Positions 22,729 through 43,849 of a stretch of DNA of 64,000 nt are shown piece after piece. Within the stretch, counting starts at the first letter, position 1; each line of letters begins with the position of its first letter. Where the stretch lies: contig CP070704.1 in NCBI GenBank assembly GCA_020349945.1, positions 748,899-812,898 of the forward strand, given 5' to 3'. This stretch comes from Deltaproteobacteria bacterium. Its GTDB lineage: Bacteria; Desulfobacterota; DSM-4660; Desulfatiglandales; B25-G16. Position numbers and translations under genes: made by a program. The notes under the pieces were generated by a model. It saw only the letters and a list, made by a program, of their open reading frames with translations. It ran no database searches and was not told where the DNA came from.

Positions 22729-22887
22729 GAAGCCCTCTCCCAATATAGGCTGGCGAAAATAACACCTTTGAATCAGGCGAGGATATCTCTCATCCTTAGT
22801 GGGAAGTGTTTACCAACAGAAAAAGAAACTAAAATCTTGGAGCAATTCTTCAAGCTACCAATAGAAAACCTACTGGAGGAAATATGA
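22729..22887 (+). other. XRE-type HTH-like reading frame lacking a start codon (possible frameshifted small regulator)
   Basis: The frame reads ...LSQYRLAKITPLNQARISLILSGKCLPTEKETKILEQFFKLPIENLLEEI-stop, resembling the second half of an XRE HTH domain. The nearest ATG (22721) is in another frame. Its TGA overlaps the ATG at 22884 (ATGA). Confidence 0.25.
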
Positions 22888-25256: not shown

Positions 25257-25283
25257 GGGTGAGATAGAGGGTTGCAAAGGAGA

Positions 25284-26375
25284 TCAAGTGGGCTCCCGGA
25301 GGGTCTCAAGCGCTTGCCAGTCAAAGCTGACACCATGTCCGGGCCGATCTGGGGCGATGGCCATCCCATCCTCTATCGTGAGGGGATGGGTAATGAAGCG
25401 TTCAAGCCCGAACCCATGCACCTCCAGGTAGGATGCGTTGGGTACCGCAGCCAGTAGGTGCACATGCAGGTCGTGTACCCCATGGGAAGTAACTGGAAGG
25501 TTATGTGCCTCTGCCACATGGGCTACCTTGAGCCACACGGTGATTCCGCCGCAGTTGGAGACATCCGGTTCGGGAAAGGATACACCGCCCGCCTCGATCA
25601 TGCGTCTGAACTCATACAGCGTGTGCATATTCTCGCCGGTAGCGATAGGGAGCTGTCCCTCTCGGGCAATACGCACATGGCCTGGTACGTCATCTGGGAT
25701 GGTGGGTTCCTCCAACCAAAAGATGTTATGTTCTACCAAGCTGCGTGAGGCTCGAATGGCCTCCTCTACGCTCCATCGCATGTTGGCATCCACCATCAGG
25801 GGGATGTTGTCTCCAATTACCTCACGGATGGCGGCCACCCGGTCCAGATCCTCTCTCAGGCGAGGGAGTCCCACCTTCATTTTGATGGCCTTGAAGCCAG
25901 TTTCGAGATTCATTGCGGTTTGTCGCTGAAGTTCTTCCAGTGTAAAATGCAGATCGATGCCTCCAATATATGCCAAAACGCGAGGGTCATGGCCCCCCAA
26001 GAGGCGCCAGAGCGGCTTGTTTTCCCGACGGGCCTTTAGATCCCACAAGGCGATGTCGATAGCAGATATGGCAAACACGGCCAATCCGCCGCGCCCGACA
26101 TAATGCAATCGCCACCACATGGTCTCCCATAATCGTTCGATGCGATCTTCCTCAGAATCTAGCAGGACAGGTGTGAGTTCGCGCTCAATTAATGAGAGAA
26201 TCGCTGCTCCGCCCATCCCTGTGGTATAGGTGAATCCCACCCCTTCCTCTCCGGAGTTCGTCTCCAGGCGAACCGTGATCAGCTCAAAATTGGTCATTTC
26301 CCCATGAGTGGAGTCGGACAGCGTGACAGGCAGTGGGATGCGATAGAGCCCTGCTTGTATGGAAGAAATCGACAT
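25284..26375 (-). CDS. enolase-superfamily enzyme (mandelate racemase/muconate lactonizing enzyme family, acid-sugar dehydratase-like)
   Basis: 363 aa. KMKVG, MVDANMRW, WLEEP and ATGE blocks typical of the MR/MLE family. Confidence 0.85.
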   Translation of the reverse strand: MSISSIQAGLYRIPLPVTLSDSTHGEMTNFELITVRLETNSGEEGVGFTYTTGMGGAAILSLIERELTPVLLDSEEDRIERLWETMWWRLHYVGRGGLAVFAISAIDIALWDLKARRENKPLWRLLGGHDPRVLAYIGGIDLHFTLEELQRQTAMNLETGFKAIKMKVGLPRLREDLDRVAAIREVIGDNIPLMVDANMRWSVEEAIRASRSLVEHNIFWLEEPTIPDDVPGHVRIAREGQLPIATGENMHTLYEFRRMIEAGGVSFPEPDVSNCGGITVWLKVAHVAEAHNLPVTSHGVHDLHVHLLAAVPNASYLEVHGFGLERFITHPLTIEDGMAIAPDRPGHGVSFDWQALETLREPT

Positions 26376-26693
26376 TGTACCTCGTTATTGAATCATTGTG
26401 TTAGGGTCTAGCGATAAAGGGAGTATAGAGAGATAGAACTTGTGCGTCAAGCAACAATGAGCCTTAATATACAGTATTCAAGAGATCAAGGCTGATGTTA
26501 ACAATCTGACCCAGGCATAAGCTAGTCTAATAGGAAAGGCGGTTTCTGCTTGACATTTATGAGGGTTTGAATTAGCCATGTCCCTATTGGAAGCCAAGAG
26601 GCCTCATTCGACAGATGAGCAGTGACATTTGCTTAAAGATTTCAGCATCATTAACTTATTGGGAACAACACCGAGATAGAGAGGAGTACTGAG

Positions 26694-27836
26694 ATGATTG
26701 ACCTGAACCTGAGTGAGGAGCAGAGGGCACTGCAAAAATTGGCCCGGGATTTTGCTCAGAAGGAGATTGCCCCTGTTGCCTTGCAGTATGACAAAGAACC
26801 TGCCTTCCCGGGCGAAATCATCAAGAAAGCCCATGCTGCAGGCCTGATGAACCTCAGCTGCCCTAAGGAGTATGGCGGGCAGGGGCAGGGGCTGGTCAAC
26901 GCGGCCTTGATTACGGAAGAGCTGAATGTAGGCTGTGTGGCTATTGCCGGGATGATTGGGATCAACTCTCTGGCCTGCGGTCCAATTCTCATTGGCGGAA
27001 GCGATGAACAAAAGCGCCGGTTCCTGATCCCGTTGAACGACGCAGGCAAGACTGCCTCCTTTGGCCTGACCGAGAGGGAGGCAGGATCTGACGCGGGAAG
27101 CCTGAAGACTGTGGCTCGGTCGGCGGGCGATCATTACGTGCTGAGGGGGCAGAAATGCTTTATCACCAACGCCAGTCATGCGGATCTTTACAGCATTTTC
27201 GCCACGCTCGACCCCAGCAAGAGGACCAAGGCCATAACCGCATTTGTTGTCCCTCGTGGATCCCCGGGCCTTTCCGTTGGAAAGGTTGAGGATAAGATGG
27301 GTCAACGTTCTCTGAATGTGGCCGAGGTAAACCTTGATGATGTCGAGGTTCCCCGAGAGAACCGCCTGGGTGAAGAGGGCGAGGGCTTCAAGATCGCCAT
27401 GAAAACTCTCGACGAGGGCCGGGTGAACATTGCCTCTTGCGCTGTGGGACTCTCCCGGGCGGCGTTTCAGGCTGCCCTGGAGTATGCCAAGGAAAGAGTC
27501 CAGTTCGGCAAGCCCATCGGCACCTTTCAGGCCTTGAACTTCATGCTGGCGGATATGGCTGTGGCTGTGGACGCTGCCCGCTTACTCACCTGGTATGCTG
27601 GCTCGATGGCCGATCAGGAAAGGCGGTATAGCAGAGAAGCTGCCCAGGCGAAATTTTTCGCCACGGATGTGGCCGTGCGCGTTACCACAGATGCAGTGCA
27701 AATCTATGGAGGATACGGGTATACCAAAGATTATGCGGTGGAGAAGTATATGCGCGATGCGAAGCTGATGCAGATTTATGAGGGAACCAACCAGGTCAAC
27801 CGGATAGTTGCCGGAGGCGTGCTGATGGGTGGATAG
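26694..27836 (+). CDS. acyl-CoA dehydrogenase (short/medium-chain type)
   Basis: 380 aa. LTEREAGSDAGS, QFGKPIGTFQA and the YEGTNQV catalytic Glu context. Confidence 0.9.
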   Translation: MIDLNLSEEQRALQKLARDFAQKEIAPVALQYDKEPAFPGEIIKKAHAAGLMNLSCPKEYGGQGQGLVNAALITEELNVGCVAIAGMIGINSLACGPILIGGSDEQKRRFLIPLNDAGKTASFGLTEREAGSDAGSLKTVARSAGDHYVLRGQKCFITNASHADLYSIFATLDPSKRTKAITAFVVPRGSPGLSVGKVEDKMGQRSLNVAEVNLDDVEVPRENRLGEEGEGFKIAMKTLDEGRVNIASCAVGLSRAAFQAALEYAKERVQFGKPIGTFQALNFMLADMAVAVDAARLLTWYAGSMADQERRYSREAAQAKFFATDVAVRVTTDAVQIYGGYGYTKDYAVEKYMRDAKLMQIYEGTNQVNRIVAGGVLMGG

Positions 27837-27865
27837 AGTAGATAAGGGCTAAGTCTGCTCTTGAT

Positions 27866-29023
27866 TCAAAGCACAGGCCCAAGTGTAGGGATGTCAAACT
27901 CTCGATGGCCCAGAATTTCCGCCTTGGTTACCTTTCCTGATGCGACTTCACGTAGCTCGCCAAATATCTGTTTTCCAACACTCTGGATGGTGCCCTTGCC
28001 ATCTATTATCACGCCTGCATTTATGTCGATATTTTCTTTCATTCGCTCATAGGTGTCGCTGTTGGTAGATACCTTTATCACCGGGACAGAAGGCGTGCCG
28101 ACTGGAGTTCCCCGGCCAGTGGTGAAAGCAATTACCTGCGCTCCAGAGGCTATTAAACCGATGTTAGACTGAACATCAAGGGCGGTGCCATCCATTATTA
28201 CTAAGCCTTTCTTGGATGGCTTCTCGGCATAGTTGACCACCTGCACAATAGTTGTACTACCGCCCTTACGGATACAGCCAAGCGATTTCTCCTCAATAGT
28301 AGTGAGTCCTCCCTCTATGTTCCCCGGTGATGGCTGTGATCCCCGAATATCCATACCCATAGACTTAGCCTTGGCCTCAGCAGCGGAAATTTTTTCATAG
28401 ATATCCCTTTCAACCTCAGCATCTCCAGCTCTTTTTGCCAGGATTTGTTCAGCGCCCAGCATCTCAGTAGTCTCTGTAAATATGACGGTGCCTCCCTCGG
28501 CGACCAATAAATCGGAGGCAACCCCCAATGCCGGGTTAGCCGTAAGCCCCGAAAAGGCATCGGAGCCACCACACTCGAGGCCCAAGATAAGCTCAGAGAT
28601 ATCTATCGATTCACGCTCAAGACTTGATGCCTCTGCCAAGAGCTTTTCAGCTAACCTTATCCCTTCTTCTACACACTTGCTCGTGCCCCCTGCCTCTTGT
28701 ATACTGGTGGCTTCCACTCTCTGACCATCTTTCACCAACTCTCCAGCAATCACATCAGGCGTTATGAGTTCGCAGCCATTTCCGACCAATAATACACCAG
28801 CAACATTCGGATGCCCGGTAAAACCAACCATAGTTCTGATTACCTGCTCCTTATCTTCGCCAACATGCCCGCACCCGCAACCGTGAATGGCACAGACAGT
28901 GCCTGCCACTCTGCCGCTTATCATCTGCGCCACTGTAGAAGCACATACTATGGTGGGGAATACTAATACGTGGTTCCGCGTTCCAGCTCTGCCATTGCTT
29001 CTACGATATCCGAAAAACTTCAT
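27866..29023 (-). CDS. UxaA-family hydro-lyase, large subunit (altronate/galactarate dehydratase C-domain or SuyB-like)
   Basis: MKFFGYRRSNGRAGTRNHVLVFPTIVCAS... is the typical start of the UxaA C-terminal domain. 385 aa. Overlaps the small-subunit gene by 4 nt. Confidence 0.8.
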   Translation of the reverse strand: MKFFGYRRSNGRAGTRNHVLVFPTIVCASTVAQMISGRVAGTVCAIHGCGCGHVGEDKEQVIRTMVGFTGHPNVAGVLLVGNGCELITPDVIAGELVKDGQRVEATSIQEAGGTSKCVEEGIRLAEKLLAEASSLERESIDISELILGLECGGSDAFSGLTANPALGVASDLLVAEGGTVIFTETTEMLGAEQILAKRAGDAEVERDIYEKISAAEAKAKSMGMDIRGSQPSPGNIEGGLTTIEEKSLGCIRKGGSTTIVQVVNYAEKPSKKGLVIMDGTALDVQSNIGLIASGAQVIAFTTGRGTPVGTPSVPVIKVSTNSDTYERMKENIDINAGVIIDGKGTIQSVGKQIFGELREVASGKVTKAEILGHREFDIPTLGPVL

Positions 29024-29310
29024 TGCTTGTCTCCCCTGCCTTTTTGGCTTTCAACATTGTGGACATGAACATGCTCACCATGCCGGATCTGTTTGGTAGC
29101 GAGGCCTATTGCCTCACCATACTTAATTATAGCCCCTCCCTTCTGAATATCCCTCAGGGCAAACTTATGTCCAAAGGGAATATTCTCTAATAACGCAGTA
29201 TCGCTGGTAAAGTCTTCTACCCCAACCTGGACGGAATCGCCCTTGCCGAGTTGGCATAATGCTGTTGCCACATTATCCCTTTTATCTATTAAGATAGCCT
29301 TTTCCTGCAC
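29020..29310 (-). CDS. UxaA-family hydro-lyase, small SAF-domain subunit (SuyA-like)
   Basis: 96 aa. ILIDKRDNVATAL...GHKFALRDIQKGGAIIKYGEAIG is the SAF/altronate dehydratase N-domain. Confidence 0.8.
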   Translation of the reverse strand: MQEKAILIDKRDNVATALCQLGKGDSVQVGVEDFTSDTALLENIPFGHKFALRDIQKGGAIIKYGEAIGLATKQIRHGEHVHVHNVESQKGRGDKQ

Positions 29311-29496
29311 CTCAAAACCTCCTTATCTTGGCTGAATAATCACCTCTCGGACAAGCTAAGGGAAACGGGAGCTGTTTTTCGACGATGGGATAATAGGAGA
29401 GAGACAGGGGTGTGTCAACCATAAAGTATACCCATGATGCTTTAGGAGGAAAGAGGGGTCGCTGGCTGTTCTCGACAGTCATGATCGATTTTTCCG

Positions 29497-29525
29497 TTGA
29501 CAACCATCAGCTGTTAAAATACTAT
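29497..29525 (+). promoter_or_regulatory. candidate sigma70 promoter (copy A)
   Basis: TTGACA (29497-29502), 17-nt spacer, TACTAT (29520-29525). The same architecture is conserved at 38998-39026. Confidence 0.55.
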
Positions 29526-29573
29526 GCCCCCGATTTCTTAACCCTTTAACCATTCGTTCTGGGGCAAGGAGTT

Positions 29574-29618
29574 ATGGTGATTTTCCGGATGATCAGACGA
29601 GTACAGAAGCCTCCATAG
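29574..29618 (+). CDS. candidate leader peptide MVIFRMIRRVQKPP (14 codons, Pro-Pro-stop)
   Basis: ATG preceded by AAGGAG. Conserved in the paralogous leader (MVIFQIIPIQRPP). The two differ in length by exactly one codon, and both end CCT CCA stop. Confidence 0.45.
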   Translation: MVIFRMIRRVQKPP

Positions 29619-29655
29619 GGGAATAGATAGCCTTTTGGGGGCTTTGGTATTTTTG
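29607..29655 (+). terminator. terminator-like hairpin overlapping the uORF stop (candidate attenuator, copy A)
   Basis: 9-bp stem AAGCCTCCA (29607-29615) / TGGGGGCTT (29636-29644) with one G-U pair and a 20-nt loop, followed by GGTATTTTTGG. The 5' arm consists of the last three sense codons of the uORF, ending directly at its stop codon. Confidence 0.4.
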
Positions 29656-29697
29656 GTGGGAGGCCAGAGAGAAACTTGTAAAAAAGGAGGAAGTGAG

Positions 29698-31161
29698 ATG
29701 GAAGCTCAGAAGATGCCAAATGGTGCACTGAGGCCTTGGAATGTTGCTGATTTGCCGGCACCACCAAAGTTCAATTTTCGCAATGCAATGGCAGTGATCG
29801 GGCCAGGGACCATTGCCTTGAGCATGTCAATCGGCAGTGGTGAGTGGTTGATCGGTCCGAGCGCTGCAGTTAGATTTGGGACCTCCGTGATGTGGATCGT
29901 AATCATCTCGGTCTTTTTCCAGGTTTTCCTGAATCAGGAATTTGCCCGATATACCCTCTACACCGGAGAGCCGGTGCTTACCGGTTTCATGAGGACCAAG
30001 CCAGGGCCCAAGCTCTGGGGTTGGCTTTATCCCCTGTTCGGTATGCTCCAGGTAGCATGGCCCGGTTGGGCTGCGGCGGCAGCAGGATGCCTTTTTGCAG
30101 CCCTCTATGGCCATTTGCCGGACGCGGCCGTTGCTGGTGACCGAAGTACAATGCTTGTACTTGGTTATATATTATTCTTTGCCTGCTTAGTGATCGTCCT
30201 GTTCGGGGGGCGTATAGAGCGCATTCTCGAGTGGCTAGCCTGGGGGATGGTTACATGGATTGTCGTCTACCTCCTCATCGTAGATGTATTCTTTGTGCCC
30301 GCAAAGGCGTGGACGGATGTGGCAGGGGGGTTCTTTAAGTTTGGCTCCATTCCCAGGGGGCCCACAGGCGTGGATTGGCCGCTGATGGGGGCCTTTGCAG
30401 CCTACGCCGGGGCAGGAGGTATCGGCAACTGCTGGATCACCAACTGGCTACGGGACAAGGGCTTCGGCATGGGTAAGGTCATCGGGTTCATCCCCAGCGC
30501 AGTGGCAGGTAAGGAGGTCAAGCTTGCCCATGTGGGAACTGTCTTTGAGCCCACCGAGAAGAATATGAGCACCTGGACGCAGTGGTGGAAGTACCTGTGG
30601 GTGGACCAGGGCATCCTCTTCGGTGGAGGGTGTGTCATAGGGATGTACTTGTGCGTGCTGCTCGCCTACGGGGTAATCCCCCATGGTACAGACATAGCTG
30701 GGCTGGCGACTGGTGCATATCAGGCAGATTACTTGATGAAGAGAGTCGGTCGTATCATGTGGTTCCTGACCCTGCTAAACGGATTCTGGGTCCTGTTTGG
30801 CACCCAGCTCAATAACATGGAAGGCCTCACACGGGTGATCACCGATCACATTTGGACTGGTAGTGAGCGGGCGCGCCGCGTGGGCGATGTGCGTTATGTA
30901 TACTACACCGTACTCGCCATTTTTGTCATCTGGGGATGTATAGCCATCAACATGGCTAAGCCGTTTGTTCTGATCATCCTCGGGGCAAATATGGCAGGAT
31001 TCATCTTTGTGTTCTCGGGGGTCCACATCCTGGTGACACAGCATCGCTTCCTGCCCAAGGAGGTGCGGGCCCCCATGTGGAGGCAAGTGATCATAGCCCT
31101 GAGCTGCATCTTCTTTGCCTTCTTCGTGCTTATGAATATCGTGAAACTGATCGGAGGCTAG
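29698..31161 (+). CDS. Nramp-like polytopic membrane permease (non-canonical; substrate unknown), paralog A
   Basis: The ATG at 29698 follows AAGGAGG. GPGTIALSMSIGSGEWL resembles Nramp TM1 but with GSGE instead of DPGN. Highly hydrophobic, ~11-12 predicted TM segments by eye. The TTG at 29635 in the ORF track would run through the leader and is unlikely. Confidence 0.6.
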   Translation: MEAQKMPNGALRPWNVADLPAPPKFNFRNAMAVIGPGTIALSMSIGSGEWLIGPSAAVRFGTSVMWIVIISVFFQVFLNQEFARYTLYTGEPVLTGFMRTKPGPKLWGWLYPLFGMLQVAWPGWAAAAAGCLFAALYGHLPDAAVAGDRSTMLVLGYILFFACLVIVLFGGRIERILEWLAWGMVTWIVVYLLIVDVFFVPAKAWTDVAGGFFKFGSIPRGPTGVDWPLMGAFAAYAGAGGIGNCWITNWLRDKGFGMGKVIGFIPSAVAGKEVKLAHVGTVFEPTEKNMSTWTQWWKYLWVDQGILFGGGCVIGMYLCVLLAYGVIPHGTDIAGLATGAYQADYLMKRVGRIMWFLTLLNGFWVLFGTQLNNMEGLTRVITDHIWTGSERARRVGDVRYVYYTVLAIFVIWGCIAINMAKPFVLIILGANMAGFIFVFSGVHILVTQHRFLPKEVRAPMWRQVIIALSCIFFAFFVLMNIVKLIGG

Positions 31162-31221
31162 GTTAGGGTATAGGAACTCCCAGATATGCAGTTGACCCGC
31201 GTCAGTCTCGGATCATATTGT

Positions 31222-31267
31222 TGAAGGCGGTTATAGATTTTTGCTTTAACCGCCTTCAGCCTTTTTG
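31222..31267 (+). terminator. intrinsic terminator after permease paralog A
   Basis: 12-bp perfect stem TGAAGGCGGTTA (31222-31233) / TAACCGCCTTCA (31247-31258), followed by GCCTTTTTGG. Confidence 0.6.
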
Positions 31268-31540
31268 GAACAGGGTTGTCGAAGGATGGGGCTGGTAGCT
31301 GTCTGATCTTCATGTCTTGCCCACTCACACTCCTCCTTTTCTTATAAACAACACTCGCCTGGTCAAGGTTTTATGGCAGAATTGAGGTGGACTTTTGATC
31401 AACCGATGTTCTATATGATTATATGGGGGGAGACATGTTTCTAATAGGGGGTAAATGTGGCTTCGACCCCGAGATCTAACTGTCGTATGGGCCGGTAGGA
31501 CCATATAGAAACAGATCAATAACCAATGGAGGGATAGAAG

Positions 31541-33433
31541 ATGACTGGGGGATACATGGGAAGGATTGGTTTTGTGGATCTATCCACGGGGGAGATAAGA
31601 GAGGAAAAGCTCGATGAGAGACTTGCACGGAGCTTTATAGGGGGTTATGGGCTTGGGGTGCGAATCCTGTTCGAGCGTCAGAGAGGAGGAATAGACCCCT
31701 TGGGGCCGGAGAACATCCTCGGCTTTACTGCTGGGCCACTGACCGGGACACAGAGCCCGACCGGTGGTAGATATATGGCGGTATGTAAATCGCCGATTAC
31801 TGGCGGTTGGGGAGATGCCAACTCGGGTGGATACTTTGGCAGTGAGTTGAAGTCTGCAGGCTGGGATGCGATCTTCATTTCCGGCATTGCGGCCTCACCT
31901 CAGTATCTTGTAGTGACAGAGGATGAACTGGAGTTGAGAGACGCATCTCATCTGTGGGGGCGAGATACCGTTGATACTGAGGAAATACTGCGCGAGGATC
32001 TGGGGATCTCCAAACTCAGAGTCGCCTGTATCGGTCAGGCCTCAGAGAGGCGGTCGCTGATCAGCGGCATTGTCAATGATAAGGGGCGTATAGCAGCTCG
32101 CTCGGGTGTTGGTGCGGTCATGGGCTCAAAGCGGCTCAAGGCTTTGGCTGTGTACGGAGGGAAAAAGGTCGCTGTAAGCGATAAGAAAAGGCTTGACCAG
32201 CTGCGCAAGAGTTTCATAGAGGAGCTTCGTGAATCAAAGGGCTTCCCTCGGTTACTTATGGATTATGGAACTTGTGGTCTGACCGATGGACTGGTGGCAG
32301 GGGGAGCAACCCCTATAAAAAACTGGCTTCTTGCGGGCAAGCAAGCCTTCCCGACCCTGGATAAGATAGCCGACTTCGATACTGTTATTCAGCACCAGGT
32401 AAAGCGATATGGTTGTTCCAATTGCCCTATTGTCTGCGGAGGTATCTTCGAGGTCTCTCAGGGGGCCTATCCCGTGGCAGAGGTTCATAAACCAGAATAT
32501 GAAACCATAGCTGCATTCGGCACCATGTGCATGAACGATGACCTGATATCCATTATCAAGCTGAATGATATGTGTAACCGAAGCGGCTTGGATACCATCT
32601 CGGCAGGAAGTGTCCTCGCGTTTGCCATGGAATGCTTTGAAGAAGGGATTATCACCGAAAGGGATACCGATGGGATCAGGCTCACCTGGGGGAACGCAGA
32701 GGCCATGATCGCCATGCTCGAGAAGATCATCCGCCGTGAGGGCTTTGGTGACATTCTGGCTGACGGGGTTAAGGCCGCTGCCCGTGAGATCGGGGAAGGC
32801 GCTCAGGAGTGCGCTATCCACGTTGGAGGACAAGAACCAGGACTGCACAACGCATTGTTCCTGCCGGGCCGGGGCACGGGGTTTGTCTGCGATCCCACCC
32901 CCGGCCGCCACACAGCTGCTGCTCCTGCGGCTCGTATAGATGCAGGTTCGCCAGCCATTATTGCCCCTTACCCGGAATTGCAGTTCCGGGGTTACGAACG
33001 CTATGAATATAAGAGCAAAGGGCCTGCCAGCGCTACAGCCTCTTGCTACTGGCAGGTGGGGGCCTGCGCAGGAGTTTGCCTCTTTCCGGTTATCTTCTTT
33101 GGTAATTACCCGCTTCTAGATTTTCTTAACGCTGTCACCGGATGGGATATGGATGTCACTGAGGCCCTGGAAACGGGGACAAGGATTCAGACGTTGAGGC
33201 AAGCCTTTAACCTTAGAGAAGGGATCGAGCCACGTGAGATAAAGCTGCCTTCCCGCATGGCCGGGGTCCCTCCTAAGAGTGATGGTCCACTTGCAGGCAT
33301 CACAATAGACATAGACACGCTAGCCTCTGAATACCGTAAGGCAATGGGATGGGATCCAGACACGGGCGACCCAACCGAGGCCACCCTTCGGCGTCTGGGA
33401 TTAAAAGAGCTAGCAGAAACCTATTGGAGGTAA
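31541..33433 (+). CDS. aldehyde:ferredoxin oxidoreductase family (tungstopterin AOR)
   Basis: 630 aa. GRIGFVDLSTGEI...GGYGLG N-domain, EYETIAAFG, CNRSGLDTIS and the Fe-S motif CSNCPIVCGG. Confidence 0.9.
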   Translation: MTGGYMGRIGFVDLSTGEIREEKLDERLARSFIGGYGLGVRILFERQRGGIDPLGPENILGFTAGPLTGTQSPTGGRYMAVCKSPITGGWGDANSGGYFGSELKSAGWDAIFISGIAASPQYLVVTEDELELRDASHLWGRDTVDTEEILREDLGISKLRVACIGQASERRSLISGIVNDKGRIAARSGVGAVMGSKRLKALAVYGGKKVAVSDKKRLDQLRKSFIEELRESKGFPRLLMDYGTCGLTDGLVAGGATPIKNWLLAGKQAFPTLDKIADFDTVIQHQVKRYGCSNCPIVCGGIFEVSQGAYPVAEVHKPEYETIAAFGTMCMNDDLISIIKLNDMCNRSGLDTISAGSVLAFAMECFEEGIITERDTDGIRLTWGNAEAMIAMLEKIIRREGFGDILADGVKAAAREIGEGAQECAIHVGGQEPGLHNALFLPGRGTGFVCDPTPGRHTAAAPAARIDAGSPAIIAPYPELQFRGYERYEYKSKGPASATASCYWQVGACAGVCLFPVIFFGNYPLLDFLNAVTGWDMDVTEALETGTRIQTLRQAFNLREGIEPREIKLPSRMAGVPPKSDGPLAGITIDIDTLASEYRKAMGWDPDTGDPTEATLRRLGLKELAETYWR

Positions 33434-33505
33434 ATAAAACACTCAGGGTCAGGATAGACTCTAGAGAAAATAAAAAGCGGTCGCACAGGATAAGGAGGGA
33501 GGATC

Positions 33506-34876
33506 ATGGCAAATGAGAAGACAGCATTAGCAGTAGATCCTTATGCGCGCAAGGTGGAATATATCCTCGCGCCACCTGACACCTTTTGGAAGAGGATAAA
33601 GTTCCTGGGCCCAGCGCTCATCTTAGCAGGGTCTATCGTCGGGTCAGGCGAGCTCATCGCTACTACCACGCTTGGCGCAAAGGTAGGGTTCTACGCCCTT
33701 TGGATGATCATCATCAGTTGCCTGATCAAGGTCGTTATACAGGAAGAGCTGGGCCGGTATACCATCGGCTCTGGAGAAACGGCCCTGCGCGCCTTTGATC
33801 ATATCCCAGGCCGCCTCCACGTGTCGTGGGTTGTCTGGTTTTGGATCATTATGACCATTGCGGTTACCTTTCAGGCAGGTGGCATTGTAGGAGGGGTTGG
33901 GCAGGCCTTGCATTTGGCCTGGCCGCAGCTTTCTGCGAACTGGTGGACTGTCATCATCACGGCCGTTGGCATCGGACTGACGGTGCGGGGCTACTATGGT
34001 ATGGTCGAGAGGATAGCGGTGTTCATGGTGGCTGTCTTCACCTTCATCACTGTAATCTGTGCCTTCTTGGTCCAGTGGACCCCACACGCGTTTTCCCTGG
34101 CAGACTTCGTAGAAGGCTTGACACTGAAGCTCCCCAAGGGCGGGGCAGGAATTGCCTTCGCCGTCTTCGGCATCACCGGTGTGGGTGCCACGGAGCTTGT
34201 GATGTACCCGTACTGGGCTGTGGAGAAGGGGTACGCCCGCTTCGCTGGGCCGACGGAAGAGACAGAGGCCTGGCTCGAACGAGCCAAGGGCTGGGTCCGA
34301 GTGATGCACGTAGACATTATAGTAGCGATGATCGTTTTTACTATCGCCACCATTGCCTTCTACATCCTCGGTGCAGCAGTGCTGCATGGTATGGAGAAAG
34401 TCCCTCAGGGATATGATATGGTCGCCACACTCTCTAACATGTACACGGAGTCGATCGGCAGCTGGGCATTCTACCTCTTCCTTGTAGGCGCGTTTTTTGT
34501 GCTCTTTTCCACCTTCTTCGTGTATATTGCCTCGTTGGCTCGGATGGCGACGGACTGCCTGAAGGTCCTGCGCCTGATCGACTTCGAAGACTACAGGGCA
34601 CGCATGCGGTGGATCGGGTTCTTCTGCATTATCTTTCCCGTGCTGTACTGTATCCTCTACGTCAAGCTGGCGGCACCAGTGTACATGGTGCTGATCGGTG
34701 GGGTAGCCCAGGCCTCGTTCCTTCCGATCATCGGCTTCTCCGCCCTTTACCTCCGCTACAAGCGAATGGACAAACGCCTGCTCCCGGGCCGAGCCATTGA
34801 TATACTGATGTGGATCTGCGCTGTTCTCATCACCATCATCGGGGTCTATGCGGTGTATCAGAAATTCGCCGGCTGA
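33506..34876 (+). CDS. Nramp-like polytopic membrane permease (third, more divergent paralog)
   Basis: 456 aa. LGPALILAGSIVGSGELIATT has the same GSGE variant of the TM1 motif. Hydrophobic throughout. Confidence 0.6.
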   Translation: MANEKTALAVDPYARKVEYILAPPDTFWKRIKFLGPALILAGSIVGSGELIATTTLGAKVGFYALWMIIISCLIKVVIQEELGRYTIGSGETALRAFDHIPGRLHVSWVVWFWIIMTIAVTFQAGGIVGGVGQALHLAWPQLSANWWTVIITAVGIGLTVRGYYGMVERIAVFMVAVFTFITVICAFLVQWTPHAFSLADFVEGLTLKLPKGGAGIAFAVFGITGVGATELVMYPYWAVEKGYARFAGPTEETEAWLERAKGWVRVMHVDIIVAMIVFTIATIAFYILGAAVLHGMEKVPQGYDMVATLSNMYTESIGSWAFYLFLVGAFFVLFSTFFVYIASLARMATDCLKVLRLIDFEDYRARMRWIGFFCIIFPVLYCILYVKLAAPVYMVLIGGVAQASFLPIIGFSALYLRYKRMDKRLLPGRAIDILMWICAVLITIIGVYAVYQKFAG

Positions 34877-34981
34877 GAGAGGCAGCAATCAAAGAAATGC
34901 ATGGGAGCAAAGGGAGCCTTTTTGTTCGTCTTGGTTATAACCATATCATAAAGGCGATCTAACGAGAGGGGTGTCATATAA

Positions 34982-36901
34982 TTGAAACATCTACTTGGGC
35001 CACTTACCGTAAAGGGCATGGAGCTTCGAAACAGACTTGTTATGCCGCCTATGGCGACGAATTTTGCTTCAGAGGATGGGGCAGTAACCAAACAAAGCAT
35101 AGGCTATTACAGAGAGCGCGCTAAAGGTGGGGCAGCATTGATTATCGTGGAGATGAGCTATGTCCACCTAACTGGTAAGGCCTTTCCCTGTATGCTTGGT
35201 GTTTACGACGATAAATTTCTTCCGGGGCTCAACGAACTTGCTGAGGCAATTAAATCATACGGGGCTGGGGCTGCATTGCAGATAGGGCACGCCGGGCGAC
35301 AAACACGCTCTGAAATCTCCGGACATCGAATACTGGCCCCGTCTGCTATACCGTCAAGGGGTACGGCAGAGGTTCCTAAGGAGATGTCAGCAGGGGAAAT
35401 CGTGGAGATTACACATGCATTTGGAAATGCCGCACTGCGCGCAAAGAACGCCGGTTTTGATGCAGTGGAACTTCACGGGACTCATGGCTATTTGCTCAAC
35501 CAATTTCTATCTCCATATACAAATAAAAGAACAGATATATATGGGGGTAGTTTCGAAAACAGACTGAGATTTCCTCTAGAGGTAATCCAGGAGGTAAGAT
35601 CAAAAGCGGGGGAAGACTATCCATTAATCTTCAGACTGTGCGCCAATGAATATATTGAAGGCGATGAGGCCATTACCCTTGATGTGGCCAAAAGGATAGC
35701 CCCGAGACTGGTTGAGGCAGGCATAGATATACTTCACATAACCGGTGGAATGGGCGAGACAAGAGATCATGTGATCCAACCCTTATATTACGGCCATGGC
35801 TATCATGTATACCTTGCAGAGGGGATAAAGCGGGTTGTGGGTAGTATTCCCGTTATTACAGCAGGAAGCATTACAGATCCTTATATGGCTGAGAAGATAC
35901 TGGAGGATGAAAAGGCAGACTTGATTGCTATGGGACGGGGGCTTATTGCAGACCCCATGTTTCCCAACAAGATAAAAGAGGGCAAGATCAAAGAAATCAG
36001 ACGCTGTATCCGTTGCAATGAATGCATCGGTCGCTTCAGGAGAGGCTACCGCATTAGCTGCAGTGTTAATCCCACAGTGGGCAAGGAGACACATAGTGAA
36101 CTGAGGCCAGCAAAAGAGCCAAGGAGAGTTCTCATAGCGGGTGCGGGTCCGGCGGGTATGGAAGCAGCAAGAATCCTCTCCTTAAGGGGACATGAAGTAA
36201 CCCTGTGTGAAAAAGGTGATGAGCCTGGAGGACTTCTTCGGATAACTACGGTTCCAGGGTGGAAAAAGGATATTCTTGCTCTTGTTGATTGGCTAAAGAC
36301 CCAATTAGAGAAGAGTAGCGTAACTGTCCACCTTAATACCGAGGTCACCCCTGAATACATCACTAAATTCGGTCCGGATGTCCTCGTAGTAGCTACAGGA
36401 TCCACGCCCAGGAAACCAAATATTCCCGGGATAGAATCAGCTATAACAGCTATAGATGTCTTAGAGGGTGTGGCTGTGGGAGACAGGGTAGTCATCTGTG
36501 GAGGAGGGCTTGTTGGCTGTGAGATAGCATGGTATCTCGCTGAGCTGAACAAAAGGGTAACTATCGTCGAAATGCTTGATGAGGTGGCTGCGGATATGGA
36601 GACTGGAACCAGAACAGCGATATTGAAGGAACTTCGAGAACATGAGGCAGATATAATCTGCAATCTAAGGATGGAAGAGATTATTCCAGGTAAGGGCATA
36701 CTCGGTGTTGACAAAAAATTGACCAGGAGAGAAATAGAGGGAGATACAGTAGTATTAGCGATGGGTTTTGACCCAAATCGCGCGTTATTTGATGGAAAAA
36801 ATAAATCATATGAGGTGTATGGTATTGGTGACGCCAAAGAGCCACGGCGCATCATTGATGCGATACGAGAGGCAGATCATATAGCCCGCTTTGGGATATA
36901 A
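34982..36901 (+). CDS. OYE-like NADH:flavin oxidoreductase fused to an FAD/NAD(P)-binding domain (2,4-dienoyl-CoA reductase-like)
   Basis: TTG start. N-terminal LRNRLVMPPMATN...GAALIIVE TIM-barrel, Cys cluster CIRCNECIGRFRRGYRISC, Rossmann motif VLIAGAGPAGMEAA. Confidence 0.85.
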   Translation: MKHLLGPLTVKGMELRNRLVMPPMATNFASEDGAVTKQSIGYYRERAKGGAALIIVEMSYVHLTGKAFPCMLGVYDDKFLPGLNELAEAIKSYGAGAALQIGHAGRQTRSEISGHRILAPSAIPSRGTAEVPKEMSAGEIVEITHAFGNAALRAKNAGFDAVELHGTHGYLLNQFLSPYTNKRTDIYGGSFENRLRFPLEVIQEVRSKAGEDYPLIFRLCANEYIEGDEAITLDVAKRIAPRLVEAGIDILHITGGMGETRDHVIQPLYYGHGYHVYLAEGIKRVVGSIPVITAGSITDPYMAEKILEDEKADLIAMGRGLIADPMFPNKIKEGKIKEIRRCIRCNECIGRFRRGYRISCSVNPTVGKETHSELRPAKEPRRVLIAGAGPAGMEAARILSLRGHEVTLCEKGDEPGGLLRITTVPGWKKDILALVDWLKTQLEKSSVTVHLNTEVTPEYITKFGPDVLVVATGSTPRKPNIPGIESAITAIDVLEGVAVGDRVVICGGGLVGCEIAWYLAELNKRVTIVEMLDEVAADMETGTRTAILKELREHEADIICNLRMEEIIPGKGILGVDKKLTRREIEGDTVVLAMGFDPNRALFDGKNKSYEVYGIGDAKEPRRIIDAIREADHIARFGI

Positions 36902-36942
36902 AGGCTGTGCCTCCCTCAGCAGGGCACCATCACAAAAAAAGC

Positions 36943-36971
36943 TTGACTGCAAATTGGTGAGGTAATATAAA
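36943..36971 (+). promoter_or_regulatory. candidate sigma70 promoter upstream of the tandem-cyclase gene
   Basis: TTGACT (36943-36948), 17-nt spacer, TATAAA (36966-36971), leaving a ~190-nt leader. Confidence 0.35.
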
Positions 36972-37167
36972 GCTATGGGATTTTCGTTGATTGTTCCTGA
37001 CACAGGGGCCTGAATTTTTTCAAAGGACGCGATCTTTTTTGGGAAAGGAGGTGGGGGAAAAGCTGTTAAGGGGCCTTGACTGTGTTGGGGCACGTGTTTG
37101 TGTGAGCAGATATCTTTCCTAGTTTCGGGGAGATACCTGTTCGTAAACAATGAAAGGAGGAACGAGC

Positions 37168-38811
37168 ATGAGCCGAACTAAAAGAACTAATCTTATCATT
37201 TCGCTGGGCATTTTGTTTGTGTTCATCCTCGCCGGCTCAGGTTATGCGTATAAGGTGATCGACCTTTCGCAAAAAGTTGAGAATGGGATGCCTGCCTGGG
37301 CTGGCAAGTGGGAAGGGATGAGCATGTGGGCCGGGGCCAAGACTCAGATGGAGTGCTACGATAAGGTGGGGAATTTTTACGGTCACGACCTGAAGTTCAC
37401 GGAGCACACCGGCACGCACATGGATAGCCCCGCTCACAACGCTTACGGACTCTGGCGACTTGATCAGATCCCGATCGACAAGTTCCATGGCAAGTGCATA
37501 ATCATGGATATGCGGCCCTGGGTGAAGGATCGGGACGGCTATGAGGTCAGCTTGGCCGATGTGAAGGCATGGGAGCAGAAGACAGGCTGCGATCTGATGA
37601 GGGATGCGGCACGGTCGATGATCTTCATGTGGACCGGCTGGGACAAGTATTGGAACGACTACATCGCGGGGAAAAACGACCGCGCTATGGGGTATCGCTT
37701 CCCTGGCATTATGGAGGATGCGGCCAAGTACTTCGCCGATTGCCGGATCAAGGGCTTCGGGTTTGATACCCTCTCCATCGATATCTACAAGAGGGTGATG
37801 GAGGGCAAGCCGGTCGCTCACCAGGCGATCTTTTCCAACAACACCTGGGTCATCGAGAACATCAAGATCGATCCCTCGGTGGCGGACAAGTGGGCCTACG
37901 CCGTACTGGCCCCCATGAAGATCTATAAAGGCTCCGGTGCCCCCGTCCGGGTGTTTGTGCTGGATGACACCAGGGCCAAGGGTATGGCCGCTTCACTGGC
38001 CTCTATGAAGGCCTTGGAGAACAAATTCATGGCGGCCCCCATGTACGATCTGGCCAACTATATCGAGAACGGGATGCACATCTGGATGGGTGTGTTTGGC
38101 ACCAACCAGGTCGGATTGGGCAATCTTAATGATTTCCGGGGCATCTATCCCTGGATCGACTATCGGGACGGTGGCTTTTACGGGCAGCAGATTTTCTGCA
38201 ACGAGCACACCGGCACCCATACGGATTCCCCCGCCCACCGTCGGGAGGGAGCGAAGTGGACCATCGATAAGGTCGCTTTGAATCACTTCGTGGCCCCCTG
38301 CCTGGTGGTGAATGCCTCCGGATATGGCCCGGAAGAGGGCGACTGGGACTTCACCATGAGCATGTTCCGGGATTGGATGAAGAAGCACCCGGGTCTGACC
38401 GTCAACAAGGGCGATATCGTCTGCTTCTCACAGAATATGGTTCACAAGTGGGCCCTCCACAACAAAGGCATCCACCGCGAGTGGGTTACCACTCACTTCC
38501 CGGGCATTGGTGGGGATGTAGCCAAGTACCTGAAGGATAAGGGCGTTGTGGGCGCGCTCACGGATGTCACCAGCATTGATGCCGCCATGCACTGCCAGAG
38601 GGGCAAAGGCACCGACCAGGAAAACAATATCACGCATGTGACCCTGTTCAGTAATGGCATCTTTGTTACGGAGAATGTCGGGGGAGACCTGCAGCAGGCC
38701 GCCAATTCCAAGGGTCTGGCCTTCGTCATGCCCTGCATGAATACCAAGAATGGATCCGGTGGCCATAGCCGCATCTGGTACTTCGAGGGCCTGGATATCC
38801 CCATCGAATAG
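37168..38811 (+). CDS. exported protein with two tandem cyclase / kynurenine-formamidase-like domains
   Basis: The ATG at 37168 follows AAGGAGG. Sec-type signal MSRTKRTNLIISLGILFVFILAGSGYA. Two copies of the HxGTHxDxPxH motif (EHTGTHMDSPAH and EHTGTHTDSPAH). Confidence 0.8.
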   Translation: MSRTKRTNLIISLGILFVFILAGSGYAYKVIDLSQKVENGMPAWAGKWEGMSMWAGAKTQMECYDKVGNFYGHDLKFTEHTGTHMDSPAHNAYGLWRLDQIPIDKFHGKCIIMDMRPWVKDRDGYEVSLADVKAWEQKTGCDLMRDAARSMIFMWTGWDKYWNDYIAGKNDRAMGYRFPGIMEDAAKYFADCRIKGFGFDTLSIDIYKRVMEGKPVAHQAIFSNNTWVIENIKIDPSVADKWAYAVLAPMKIYKGSGAPVRVFVLDDTRAKGMAASLASMKALENKFMAAPMYDLANYIENGMHIWMGVFGTNQVGLGNLNDFRGIYPWIDYRDGGFYGQQIFCNEHTGTHTDSPAHRREGAKWTIDKVALNHFVAPCLVVNASGYGPEEGDWDFTMSMFRDWMKKHPGLTVNKGDIVCFSQNMVHKWALHNKGIHREWVTTHFPGIGGDVAKYLKDKGVVGALTDVTSIDAAMHCQRGKGTDQENNITHVTLFSNGIFVTENVGGDLQQAANSKGLAFVMPCMNTKNGSGGHSRIWYFEGLDIPIE

Positions 38812-38837
38812 ATCGGGAATTCCAAATCTCTGACGGC

Positions 38838-38870
38838 AAAGGGGCTATCTTCGGATAGCCCCTTTTGATT
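38838..38870 (+). terminator. intrinsic terminator after the tandem-cyclase gene
   Basis: Stem AAAGGGGCTATC / GATAGCCCCTTT around a TTCG loop, followed by TGATT. Confidence 0.65.
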
Positions 38871-38997
38871 CTGCTAAGGGACTGGCGACCGACTCTGGCG
38901 GAATCCTCTCCTCTGTCTTAGCCCACCCGAGAAATCGTTTCGTGAAGCTTACTGGTTGACCTGTTGCAAGTCTTCTCCGATACAAAGAATTTTTGGG

Positions 38998-39026
38998 TTG
39001 ACAATCATCAGATATTAAAATAATAT
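38998..39026 (+). promoter_or_regulatory. candidate sigma70 promoter (copy B)
   Basis: TTGACA (38998-39003), 17-nt spacer, TAATAT (39021-39026). Confidence 0.55.
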
Positions 39027-39074
39027 CCAGCCGGTCTATTTGTGCTTCAACCATAACTATTGGGGCAATGAGTG

Positions 39075-39116
39075 ATGGTGATTTTCCAGATCATCCCAAT
39101 ACAAAGGCCTCCATAA
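39075..39116 (+). CDS. candidate leader peptide MVIFQIIPIQRPP (13 codons, Pro-Pro-stop)
   Basis: Positional and sequence homolog of the uORF at 29574-29618. Its SD is weaker (AATGAG). Confidence 0.4.
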   Translation: MVIFQIIPIQRPP

Positions 39117-39150
39117 GGGAATATATAACCTTTGGAGGCTTTTTTATTTC
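39105..39150 (+). terminator. terminator-like hairpin overlapping the uORF stop (candidate attenuator, copy B)
   Basis: 9-bp stem AGGCCTCCA (39105-39113) / TGGAGGCTT (39133-39141) with one G-U pair and a 19-nt loop, running into TTTTTTATTTC. Confidence 0.5.
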
Positions 39151-39256
39151 TGGTGGTCGGCCAAAATACAGTCCGTGCCAGTGGGGGGAGCTGGTAATAG
39201 TCTATCGGTTCGGCCAGGATCTGGGACAGAAAAACCTTTAGAAAGGAGGGCGTGAG

Positions 39257-40720
39257 ATGGAAGCTTCAAAGATGCCAAGTGGTGCACTGAGTCCTTGGAA
39301 TGTCGCCGATTTACCGGCACCACCGACGTTCAATTTTCGTAATGTCATGGCGGTGATCGGCCCGGGAACCATTGCCTTGAGCATGTCAATCGGCAGTGGC
39401 GAGTGGCTGATGGGTCCGAGCGCTACAGTAAAGTATGGGACCGCCGTGATGTGGATCGTTATCGTATCGGTATTTTTCCAGGTTTTCCTCAATCAGGAAT
39501 TTGCCCGGTACACCCTCTACACCGGAGAGCCGGTGCTGACCGGTTTCATGAGGACCAAGCCAGGACCAAAGCTCTGGGGTTGGCTTTATCCCCTGCTTGC
39601 TATCCTGCATGTAGGATGGCCTGGCTGGGCAGCGGCAGCGGCAGCATGCCTTTTTGGAGCCCTGTATGGCCACTTGCCTGATGCGGCTGTGGCTGCTGAC
39701 CGGAGTACCATGCTTACCCTTGGTTACATACTGTTCTTCGGGTGTATAGTCATCGTCCTTTTTGGTGGCCGCATTGAGCGCATTCTCGAGTTCGTAGCCT
39801 GGGGCATGGTTATATGGATTGTCGTCTACCTCCTGATCGTTGACATATTCTTTGTGCCCGGAAAGGCGTGGACGGATGTGGCAGGGGGGTTCTTGAAGTT
39901 TGGCTCCATTCCCAGGGGGCCCACAGGTGTGGATTGGGCCCTGATGGGTGCCTTTGCAGCTTACTCCGGGGCAGGAGGTATCGGCAACTGCTGGATCACT
40001 AACTGGCTGCGGGACAAGGGCTTCGGCATGGGGAAGGTCATTGGGTTCATCCCCAGCGCGATTGCAGGGAAAGAGGTGAAGCTCGCCCATGTGGGAAGTG
40101 TCTTTGAGCCCAACGAGAAGAACATGAGCGGCTGGAGACAGTGGTGGAAGTATCTGTGGATGGATCAGGGTGTCCTCTTCGGCATCGGGTGCGTGGTAGG
40201 GATGTACCTGTGCGTAGTGTGCGCCTACGGGATGATCCCCCATGGTACAGACATAACTGGGCTGGCGGCCGGTGCATACCAGGCGGATTACCTGGCGAAA
40301 AGGATCGGTCGTGCCATGTGGTTCCTGACCTTGATAAACGGATTCTGGATCCTGTTTGGTACCCAGCTTAGTATTACCGATGGCTTCACGCGGGTAGTTA
40401 CCGACCACGTATGGGCCTGTAGTGAGCGTATGCGCCGCCTGGGCGATGTGCGGTATATCTATTATGGTATATTCATCATCTTTGTCATCTGGGGATGTAT
40501 TGCCATCAACCTGGCGAAACCGTTCGTCCTGCTGGTCATCGGGGCGAATATGGCAGCATTCATCTTCGTGGTCTCAGGGGTCCACATTCTGGTGGTGCAA
40601 CATCTCTTCCTGCCCAGGGAGGTGCGAGCCCCCGTGTGGAGGCAGGTGATCGTAGCCCTGTCCTGCATCTTCTTTGGCTTTTTCGTGCTTATGAATATAG
40701 TGAAACTTCTCGGAGGCTAG
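39257..40720 (+). CDS. Nramp-like polytopic membrane permease, paralog B
   Basis: 487 aa, gap-free alignment to paralog A. SD AAGGAGG lies before the ATG. Confidence 0.6.
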   Translation: MEASKMPSGALSPWNVADLPAPPTFNFRNVMAVIGPGTIALSMSIGSGEWLMGPSATVKYGTAVMWIVIVSVFFQVFLNQEFARYTLYTGEPVLTGFMRTKPGPKLWGWLYPLLAILHVGWPGWAAAAAACLFGALYGHLPDAAVAADRSTMLTLGYILFFGCIVIVLFGGRIERILEFVAWGMVIWIVVYLLIVDIFFVPGKAWTDVAGGFLKFGSIPRGPTGVDWALMGAFAAYSGAGGIGNCWITNWLRDKGFGMGKVIGFIPSAIAGKEVKLAHVGSVFEPNEKNMSGWRQWWKYLWMDQGVLFGIGCVVGMYLCVVCAYGMIPHGTDITGLAAGAYQADYLAKRIGRAMWFLTLINGFWILFGTQLSITDGFTRVVTDHVWACSERMRRLGDVRYIYYGIFIIFVIWGCIAINLAKPFVLLVIGANMAAFIFVVSGVHILVVQHLFLPREVRAPVWRQVIVALSCIFFGFFVLMNIVKLLGG

Positions 40721-43687: not shown

Positions 43688-43849
43688 TAGTCTACCCCCT
43701 CACTCCTCCTCGGCCAAAAAATGACGATGCCTTTCTCTTCGTATTGAGATTGTTTAAGGCACACCTTTATCTGATCAATTACCGAACTACCACCCCCTTT
43801 TTCCGTTCTCCTTTTCTCATTAGCTTCCGCAATCTTGCCAGACACGAAC

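Follow-up and report, generated by a model that had tools for sequence, protein, structure and literature searches.

The genes at 25284-40720 of a 64,000-nucleotide stretch of contig CP070704.1 (positions 748,899 to 812,898; hereafter the window), from the metagenome-assembled genome (MAG) of an uncultured member of the Desulfobacterota (deltaproteobacterial), bring together an aldehyde:ferredoxin oxidoreductase (AOR), an OYE-FAD-[4Fe-4S] reductase, an exported double-cyclase hydrolase, a split UxaA/GarD-type dehydratase, an enolase-superfamily enzyme and three permeases. We interpret this locus as a hotspot of gene accretion on a conserved backbone rather than as the operon of a single pathway, a reading to which we give a probability of roughly 0.55. 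A preliminary description of the window had proposed one dedicated pathway unit of 15 kb; this idea does not survive the gene-by-gene presence and absence in relatives, the separate expression signals and the occurrence of orthologues elsewhere.

Mosaic gene content among close relatives

All proteins of the cluster were compared by tblastn with every fetched locus of the permease family (149 loci from genomes and metagenomes, with 80 genome loci in the first round). The backbone common to the relatives consists of an AbfD-like gene, a class-III aminotransferase gene (AT3), the enolase-type gene on the minus strand, the AOR and OYE reductase genes, a permease gene preceded by a conserved leader, and a GNAT acetyltransferase gene on the minus strand. 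The close relatives form five lineages with four arrangements. The first lineage (the window, L086 and L158) carries the full set in the same order at 94-99 % identity. The second (L101, L087, L092) and the third (L006, L090, L091, L121) display the order AT3, enolase-type gene (-), AOR, OYE reductase, leader and permease, GNAT (-), read only as far as the contigs reach: L087 shows AOR, OYE reductase, permease and GNAT (-), and L006 spans the leader, the permease and downstream genes only. The fourth lineage, L110, has AT3, enolase-type gene (-), acyl-CoA dehydrogenase (ACAD), OYE reductase, leader and permease, the ACAD gene taking the place of the AOR gene. The fifth, L088, has permease, AOR, a double cyclase, permease and GNAT (-), the cyclase gene replacing that of the OYE reductase.

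The backbone is thus conserved, with variable slots to both sides of the AOR and OYE reductase genes. Across the five lineages each of the following comes and goes on its own: the genes for ACAD, for both UxaA-type subunits, for the first and second permeases of the window (perm1 and perm2) and for the double cyclase. The ACAD gene is seen only in the window, L158 and L110, and the UxaA-type enzyme only in the window and L158. What was added in the lineage of the window is a series of self-contained modules: the ACAD gene, the split UxaA-type dehydratase, the perm1 copy with its leader, perm2 and the exported double cyclase. In the near-identical sister genome perm2 lies in two pieces of 183 and 291 aa (L086 4252-5621; L158 13810-15182), the result of either a frameshift or misassembly and a hint that perm2 might be dispensable. 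The gene content and the mosaic synteny, like the leader anatomy described below, are matters of direct observation.

AT3 orthologues of 81-86 % identity adjoin the enolase-type gene in L090, L091, L092, L101 and L110, and enolase-type orthologues (86-90 %) occur in six contigs, AOR orthologues (85-99 %) in L086-L088, L090-L092, L101 and L121, and OYE reductase orthologues (78-95 %) in eight contigs. The AbfD-like gene stands directly 5' of AT3 in L091, L092, L101 and L158, a pair that is split in the window by a 13-kb insertion, and nrdDG follows the GNAT gene in the relatives. The subset that is syntenic across the five lineages, which come from different sediment metagenomes, one of them labelled SMTZ, comprises AT3, the enolase-type gene, AOR, the OYE reductase and the leader with its permease; the full 15-kb set recurs only in the near-identical sister genome.

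Genes and probable transcription units of the window

Every gene named in the preliminary description was found at its coordinates by the open reading frame (ORF) list together with Pfam and NCBIfam scans. As a complete list it fell short, lacking the ACAD gene and the SAF small subunit, and its left boundary at 25284 excluded AT3, a gene of the backbone. The features are as follows.

8924-10366, +: AbfD-like protein (4-hydroxybutyryl-CoA dehydratase / vinylacetyl-CoA isomerase family; Pfam HpaB_N/HpaB; best PDB match 1u8v, 355 bits)
23925-25256, +: class-III aminotransferase AT3, backbone (Pfam Aminotran_3)
25284-26375, -: enolase-superfamily MR_MLE enzyme of the mandelate racemase subgroup, backbone (MR_MLE_N and MR_MLE_C domains present)
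26694-27836, +: acyl-CoA dehydrogenase (ACAD), variable gene (Pfam/NCBIfam; AcrC-like, 402 bits, below 640)
27866-29023, -: UxaA/GarD-type dehydratase, large subunit, variable gene (Pfam/NCBIfam)
29020-29310, -: SAF small subunit of the UxaA-type enzyme, 96 aa (4-nt overlap with the large subunit; aligns to the N-terminus of the GarD model)
29497-29525, +: sigma-70-type promoter of the perm1 leader, TTGACA-17-TACTAT (promoter scan; kept in 13 leader copies)
29574-29618, +: ORF of the perm1 leader, MVIFRMIRRVQKPP-stop (read from the sequence)
29603-29654, +: intrinsic terminator of the perm1 leader (leader stop codon within the 5' arm)
29698-31161, +: Nramp-like permease 1 (perm1), paralogue of perm3 (NCBIfam)
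31223-31267, +: hairpin and T-run after perm1
31541-33433, +: aldehyde:ferredoxin oxidoreductase (AOR type), backbone (PF02730, PF01314, CxxCxxxC)
33506-34876, +: Nramp-like permease 2 (perm2), variable gene (NCBIfam)
34982-36901, +: OYE-FAD-[4Fe-4S] reductase, backbone (PF00724, PF07992, CxxCxxC...C motif)
36943-36971, +: promoter-like site before the cyclase gene, TTGACT-17-TATAAA (presumed, read by eye; unlisted by the promoter scan)
37168-38811, +: exported double-cyclase hydrolase (PF04199 twice), variable gene, ORF from 37150 (Pfam; Sec-type N-terminus)
38838-38870, +: strong terminator after the cyclase gene, a perfect GC-rich hairpin with T-run
38998-39026, +: sigma-70-type promoter of the perm3 leader, TTGACA-17-TAATAT (promoter scan)
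39075-39116, +: ORF of the perm3 leader, MVIFQIIPIQRPP-stop (read from the sequence)
39103-39149, +: intrinsic terminator of the perm3 leader
39257-40720, +: Nramp-like permease 3 (perm3), backbone (NCBIfam)
40914-41384, -: GNAT acetyltransferase, convergent with perm3, a neighbour kept in the relatives

Two gene starts differ from those of the ORF list. The perm1 ORF is listed from 29635, and the start that it shares with its paralogue is the ATG at 29698, preceded by AAAGGAGG; the cyclase likely starts at the ATG at 37168, also preceded by AAAGGAGG, which fits a 547-aa database protein (P0001, 100 % identical).

The separate promoter-like and terminator-like elements and the mixed strands suggest, by sequence, six or more probable transcription units in the window. 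The perm1 gene has its own promoter, an attenuator-like leader and a downstream hairpin with T-run; the cyclase gene has its own promoter-like site on the 5' side and a strong terminator on the 3' side; perm3 has its own promoter and attenuator-like leader; and three genes, those of the enolase-type and UxaA-type enzymes included, are encoded on the opposite strand. Between perm1 and the AOR gene, a gap of 379 nt contains a 56-aa ORF on the minus strand (31158-31328), and only about 28 nt upstream of the AOR gene align with L101; the ORF may be the remnant of an insertion event. The G+C content is 0.49-0.54 over 24000-40000, 0.43-0.48 downstream and mostly 0.44-0.50 upstream.

The leader before perm1 and perm3

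The preliminary description had placed two of the three permeases under a conserved leader, and such a leader does exist: the segments 29488-29666 and 38989-39163 are 76 % identical over 179 nt (blastn E = 2e-28). This likeness is far beyond chance, though duplication would leave the same. Both copies are built in one order, with a TTGACA-17-TA(C/A)TAT promoter, about 50 poorly conserved nucleotides, a GGAG-type Shine-Dalgarno sequence, ATG-GTG, a short ORF, and a hairpin with T-run. The ORF has 13-14 codons and ends in (K/R)-P-P-stop (MVIFRMIRRVQKPP and MVIFQIIPIQRPP), and its final codons together with the stop (AAG/AGG CCT CCA TAG/TAA) fall within the 5' arm of the terminator. In an alignment of 13 leader copies, taken from the window and from related contigs, conservation is concentrated in the promoter, the ATGGTGATTTTCC block and the terminator, whose stem is kept across the copies with G-C to G-U changes and two double changes. 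A search with an nhmmer profile found the element only before this permease clade.

Is the leader a riboswitch? Against Rfam 15 nothing reached the gathering score, the only matches being at chance level (E >= 0.7), and the part 5' of the terminator shows no gain in folding stability over shuffled controls (z = +0.7 to +1.2). The leader is therefore probably no aptamer, and we reject the reading as a known riboswitch. A conserved antiterminator was also discarded as a candidate: a pairing of the ORF start with the 5' arm is predicted in L101 and is not kept in the copies of the window. Inducible uptake through the leader, as first suggested, is plausible, with an attenuator-like element in the place of a recognised riboswitch.

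From its layout we read the leader as an attenuator. C-terminal Pro-Pro slows termination of translation. A ribosome translating the leader ORF would pause at (K/R)-P-P-stop inside the 5' arm of the terminator, where it would block formation of the hairpin, and RNA polymerase would then read through into the permease gene; if no such ribosome were present, transcription would terminate. Ribosome occlusion of this kind would be the simplest mechanism, and we infer it from the behaviour of C-terminal Pro-Pro and by analogy with the TnaC, MgtL and pyrBI leaders. Like these leader-peptide attenuators, which use the position of a ribosome at or near a stop codon or proline codons, the element has a short ORF between promoter and terminator; here the ORF ends in Pro-Pro-stop, with the stop codon inside the 5' arm. 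Unlike them, it has an ORF of only 13-14 codons and shows no sequence similarity to the known leaders; moreover, tna and mgtA rely on Rho-dependent termination, whereas the terminator here is intrinsic. The leader is the sole potentially new element of the locus.

The permeases

The perm1 and perm3 proteins are 84 % identical to each other, and perm2 is only 22 % identical to them. All three pass the NCBIfam model NF037982 'Nramp family divalent metal transporter' (Nramp_1) with 182-184 bits against a cut-off of 50. None of the three permeases of the window matches Pfam PF01566 (Nramp), a domain that is matched by the N-terminal perm2 piece of L158, and a profile of the perm1/3 family finds no match among PDB sequences, Nramps included. 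In a Foldseek search with the AlphaFold model of perm3 (pLDDT 87.6) the top match is DraNramp, Nramp structures reaching TM-scores of 0.63-0.80 at 13-16 % identity; the next matches are EleNRMT and a model of YcsG, followed by APC amino-acid transporters. On this model the permeases are predicted to have a LeuT-type, Nramp-like fold.

The position that we take to be that of the metal-binding DPGN motif of Nramp transmembrane helix 1 reads SIGSGEW in perm1 and perm3 and IVGSGEL in perm2, a provisional placement of our own; by our reading the permeases show no MPH-type motif of helix 6 either. Within the perm1/3 family G46, E49 and W50 are invariant and G48 is nearly so. The likeness to Nramp/SLC11 proteins, including the NRMT Mg2+ transporters and Bacillus subtilis YcsG, thus lies in the fold and in the Nramp_1 model, and the differences lie in the low identity, the missing Pfam Nramp match and, on our reading, the exchange of DPGN for GSGEW.

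The perm1/3 family has more than 1800 database proteins and 566 genome hits, from NC10, Aminicenantia, Acidobacteriota, Poribacteria, cyanobacteria and others, and from uncultured anaerobes. An Ldh_2 (type-2 malate/lactate dehydrogenase) gene stands directly 5' of the permease gene in 14 loci, the sampled ones being from Poribacteria (L057-L084), and a VWA protein is encoded beside it in 11. In the deltaproteobacterial loci the neighbours are a corrinoid protein with a URO-D-type methyltransferase, a GyrI-like protein, a pair of ACADs, a NUDIX protein and an enoyl-CoA hydratase. Examples of such contexts lie at L084 8954-9982, L100 2592-4354 and L118 12759-13772. These distant neighbours lean towards an organic substrate of the permeases, with a cation still a candidate.

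Enzyme subfamilies

The absence of a described pathway for the gene set, noted in the preliminary description, agrees with the family scans, in which no gene reaches the NCBIfam equivalog cut-off of a characterised enzyme; the subfamily placement of the AOR, OYE and cyclase proteins likewise found none of them to be such an equivalog. The AOR protein has full-length AFOR_N (PF02730, 1.3e-71) and AFOR_C (PF01314, 3.9e-102) domains and the CxxCxxxC cysteines of the [4Fe-4S] cluster in YGCSNCPIVCGG, three of the cluster cysteines being mapped. It is nearest to the AOR of Pyrococcus furiosus (1aor, 381 bits), ahead of FOR (259), BamB (221) and WOR5 (190), and it is a generic AOR-type enzyme of a populous Desulfobacterota clade. 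The OYE reductase combines an Oxidored_FMN barrel (PF00724), the cysteine cluster CIRCNECIGRFRRGYRISC and a C-terminal FAD/NAD(P) domain (PF07992); its best PDB match is the 2-naphthoyl-CoA reductase NCR (6qkg, 328 bits), then FadH (264), and it stays below the equivalog cut-offs for BaiCD (521 against 825), mycofactocin OYE_2 (517 against 793) and bilirubin reductase (462 against 750). The families are those of the clostridial 2-enoate reductase and tungsten AOR (carboxylic acid reductase), here encoded side by side, the OYE protein being a three-domain reductase of the FadH/NCR/BaiCD type; in contrast to the known system, no equivalog cut-off is reached, and the adjacency is limited to one narrow clade.

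The cyclase has a Sec-type N-terminus and two PF04199 stretches with the HxGTHxDxPxH motif intact in both halves (HTGTHMDSPAH, HTGTHTDSPAH). It is far from kynurenine formamidase (arylformamidase TIGR03035, 81.7 against 223) and from isatin hydrolase (72 bits). The enolase-type enzyme has its best PDB match in 2ovl (463 bits), a 'putative racemase' with no assigned function, matches a 3,6-anhydrogalactonate cycloisomerase with 376 bits, and falls below the TalGalacDh equivalog (290 against 500). The nearest solved structures of the aminotransferase are D-phenylglycine aminotransferase, GSA aminomutases and beta-transaminases.

The UxaA-type enzyme has the SAF, GD_AH_second and GD_AH_C architecture split over two ORFs, the small subunit being called in L158 with a faint PF08666 SAF match, and it scores 259 against the cut-off of 731 for galactarate dehydratase (TIGR03248). 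SuyAB is the only heteromeric member of the UxaA/GarD superfamily with a described function, and four cysteines are conserved across the superfamily except in SuyB (PMC6336799). The enzyme of the window resembles this (R)-sulfolactate sulfo-lyase in its separate small (SAF) and large subunits. Unlike SuyB, its large subunit has Cys27, 49/51, 84 and 151 at the four positions, as provisionally mapped by offset, and no sulfite exporter or sulfolactate dehydrogenase gene lies near the UxaA-type genes. Given the misfit of this provisional cysteine pattern, we did not adopt the SuyAB assignment. Each of the enzymes falls into a known family, and no sign of a new biochemical principle is seen.

Components outside the clade

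Cyclase orthologues of 74-77 % identity are placed after secDF-recJ, and more distant homologues occur in three further unrelated contexts; a functional tie of the double cyclase to the cluster was rejected, the six contexts of its homologues (L001-L005, L150-L152) being all unrelated apart from the second cyclase in L088. AOR orthologues of 73-82 % are stand-alone genes in unrelated contexts, three of which lack the OYE reductase, and we likewise dismissed an adjacency of the two genes beyond the clade. Among 100 permease-family loci at 38-70 % identity, tblastn found homologues of the AOR, cyclase and UxaA-type proteins in none within 10 kb of flank, and OYE and ACAD homologues near the permease in few. 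A general link of the permease family to AOR, OYE, UxaA or cyclase genes was also set aside, the 149 loci having given only sporadic ACAD or short-OYE neighbours. A literature search found no paper on a cluster of AOR, enoate reductase and aminotransferase in sulfate reducers.

In L153 an AOR orthologue (82 %) is followed by a gene for a 196-aa PF01553 acyltransferase (9071-9661), and the window encodes a PF01553 protein of the same length and family at 6463-7053, about 24 kb upstream of the AOR gene. This pairing hints at an older AOR neighbourhood that has since been rearranged.

Regions flanking the cluster

The segment 10390-23897 of the window is a strain-specific insertion of about 13 kb between the AbfD-like and aminotransferase genes, which are contiguous in L091, L092, L101 and L158. 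At its start lies an aminotransferase fragment of 338 nt (10390-10727), which shares 97 % identity with the L101 allele and only 82 % with the full-length gene of the window; the insertion ends with a recombinase-like ORF (22884-23897) that has a weak Zn_ribbon_recom match. The cargo at 11226-22145 includes a 3-hydroxyacyl-CoA dehydrogenase, Liv-type ABC permeases with a periplasmic binding protein, and a short-chain dehydrogenase/reductase (SDR) or epimerase; a BKACE enzyme that narrowly misses the cut-off for '3,5-dioxohexanoate:acetyl-CoA acetone transferase' (399 against 430 bits); thiolase-like fragments at 19133-19932; and an acetoacetate-CoA ligase above its cut-off (921 bits). By these family matches the cargo looks like a beta-keto-acid or triacetate-type module.

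On the other side, a gene for a TonB-dependent receptor and a cobalamin riboswitch (43936-44125, -, 112.7 bits) lie at 41591-44125 between the GNAT gene and nrdD, as they do in L086; they are absent from that place in L006, L087, L090, L091 and L106. A second cobalamin riboswitch is found at 62289-62500 (+).

Discussion

Could the genes at 25284-40720 nevertheless form one inducible pathway for a single compound, in which the exported cyclase opens an amide or lactam outside the cell, the permeases take up what is released, and degradation is completed by the dehydratases, the AOR and the OYE reductase? All of them are catabolic in type and packed into 15 kb, L086 and L158 share the complete set, and the 44 %-identical double cyclase of L088 also lies between the AOR and a permease gene, filling that slot at 3828-5480. 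We nonetheless consider this improbable: with 94-99 % identity to the window, L086 and L158 provide no independent test, the other four lineages are devoid of four to six of the genes, the closer orthologues of the cyclase and those of the AOR sit in unrelated contexts, the strands are mixed, several promoter-like and terminator-like sites are present, and perm2 is split in the sister genome. The hotspot interpretation has its own difficulties. Cyclase-type genes entered the locus at least twice, of which a mosaic gives no account, and the five lineages are a narrow clade of about 80-87 % nucleotide identity, where a shared gene order could be inherited without functional coupling.

Translation of the leader ORF is to be regarded as putative: most substitutions in it are non-synonymous, the frame in L110 is broken by a 1-nt deletion, no terminator is present in the leaders of L088 and L089, and the perm3-type copies have a degenerate Shine-Dalgarno sequence. 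The leader alone might instead be untranslated, either a terminator and antiterminator controlled by an RNA or by a protein, such as an RNA-binding antiterminator whose gene lies elsewhere, or a constitutive promoter with a leaky terminator carried along by recent duplication. The changed amino acids, the broken frame and the weak Shine-Dalgarno sequence would be expected of such an element; the terminator stem alone explains the conservation of AAGCCTCCA, and the leader occurs in just one narrow clade. What makes us hold this account as somewhat unlikely is that the start block ATG-GTG-ATT-TTC is the most conserved segment outside the stem, that the frame and the PP-stop persist in six of the seven distinct variants with a terminator, one copy differing by an in-frame 3-nt indel and the stop being TAA or TAG in the same place, and that no conserved alternative antiterminator pairing was found. 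A further alternative concerns the permeases, which might be transporters of Mg2+ or a metal unrelated to the enzymes, with a Pro-Pro leader that, like Salmonella MgtL, senses low cytoplasmic Mg2+ or poor translation by ribosome pausing at proline codons. Control of a cation transporter by an MgtL-type leader is established, the leader here has a terminal Pro-Pro, the proteins pass NF037982, DraNramp and EleNRMT lead the fold matches, the perm2 piece of L158 matches Pfam Nramp, and the distant family members have heterogeneous neighbours. The exchange of DPGN for GSGEW (perm1/3) or GSGEL (perm2) and the missing MPH-type motif, both provisional readings of our own, argue against it, as do the lack of a PF01566 match in the permeases of the window, the failure of the family profile to find any PDB Nramp, and the operon-like adjacency to Ldh_2, ACAD, enoyl-CoA hydratase and corrinoid methyltransferase genes in other phyla, and we judge cation transport quite unlikely. 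Unlikely, too, and decidedly tentative is the most far-reaching proposal that the data would allow: that a new attenuator, working by ribosome occlusion at PP-stop with a stall that may respond to a small molecule, to Mg2+ or to the capacity for translation, switches on a family of Nramp-like permeases in which the metal site has been exchanged for GxGEW and which carry organic, perhaps quaternary-amine or amino-acid-like, substrates.

What might the backbone of the hotspot do? The permease would import an organic acid, probably one bearing an amino or ammonium group; the aminotransferase would convert the amino group to a carbonyl or aldehyde; the AOR would oxidise the aldehyde to an acid with ferredoxin; and enoyl or dienoyl intermediates would fall to the OYE/FAD/FeS reductase, assisted by ACAD or the AbfD-like enzyme, on the pattern of fermentations of omega-amino acids of the 4-aminobutyrate (GABA) or 5-aminovalerate type. 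The substrate class and the order of reactions are chemistry that we propose only weakly. The genes recall those of 4-aminobutyrate and 5-aminovalerate fermentation in the succession of an AbfD-like and a class-III aminotransferase gene in the relatives and in the nearby dienoyl-CoA-reductase-type OYE and ACAD genes. Several points weigh against the scheme: the backbone contains no CoA ligase or transferase, alcohol dehydrogenase, hydroxyacid dehydrogenase or regulator, the aminotransferase belongs with the GSAM, D-phenylglycine and beta-transaminase types and not with GabT, and the enolase-type enzyme has no place in it. To our knowledge, neither AOR nor an enolase-type enzyme is part of the described 4-aminobutyrate and 5-aminovalerate pathways.

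The case carries a caution for the interpretation of single MAGs, in which a dense run of catabolic genes resembled an orphan pathway and the relatives reveal a hotspot with inserted independent modules. It also bears on a permease family of more than 1800 members that is annotated as "divalent metal transporter" and in which, by our reading, the metal-site motif is absent. Should the backbone prove to work as one unit, it would represent an undescribed ferredoxin-linked route in marine-sediment sulfate reducers, by which an amino compound would be degraded via an aldehyde and an enoyl intermediate.

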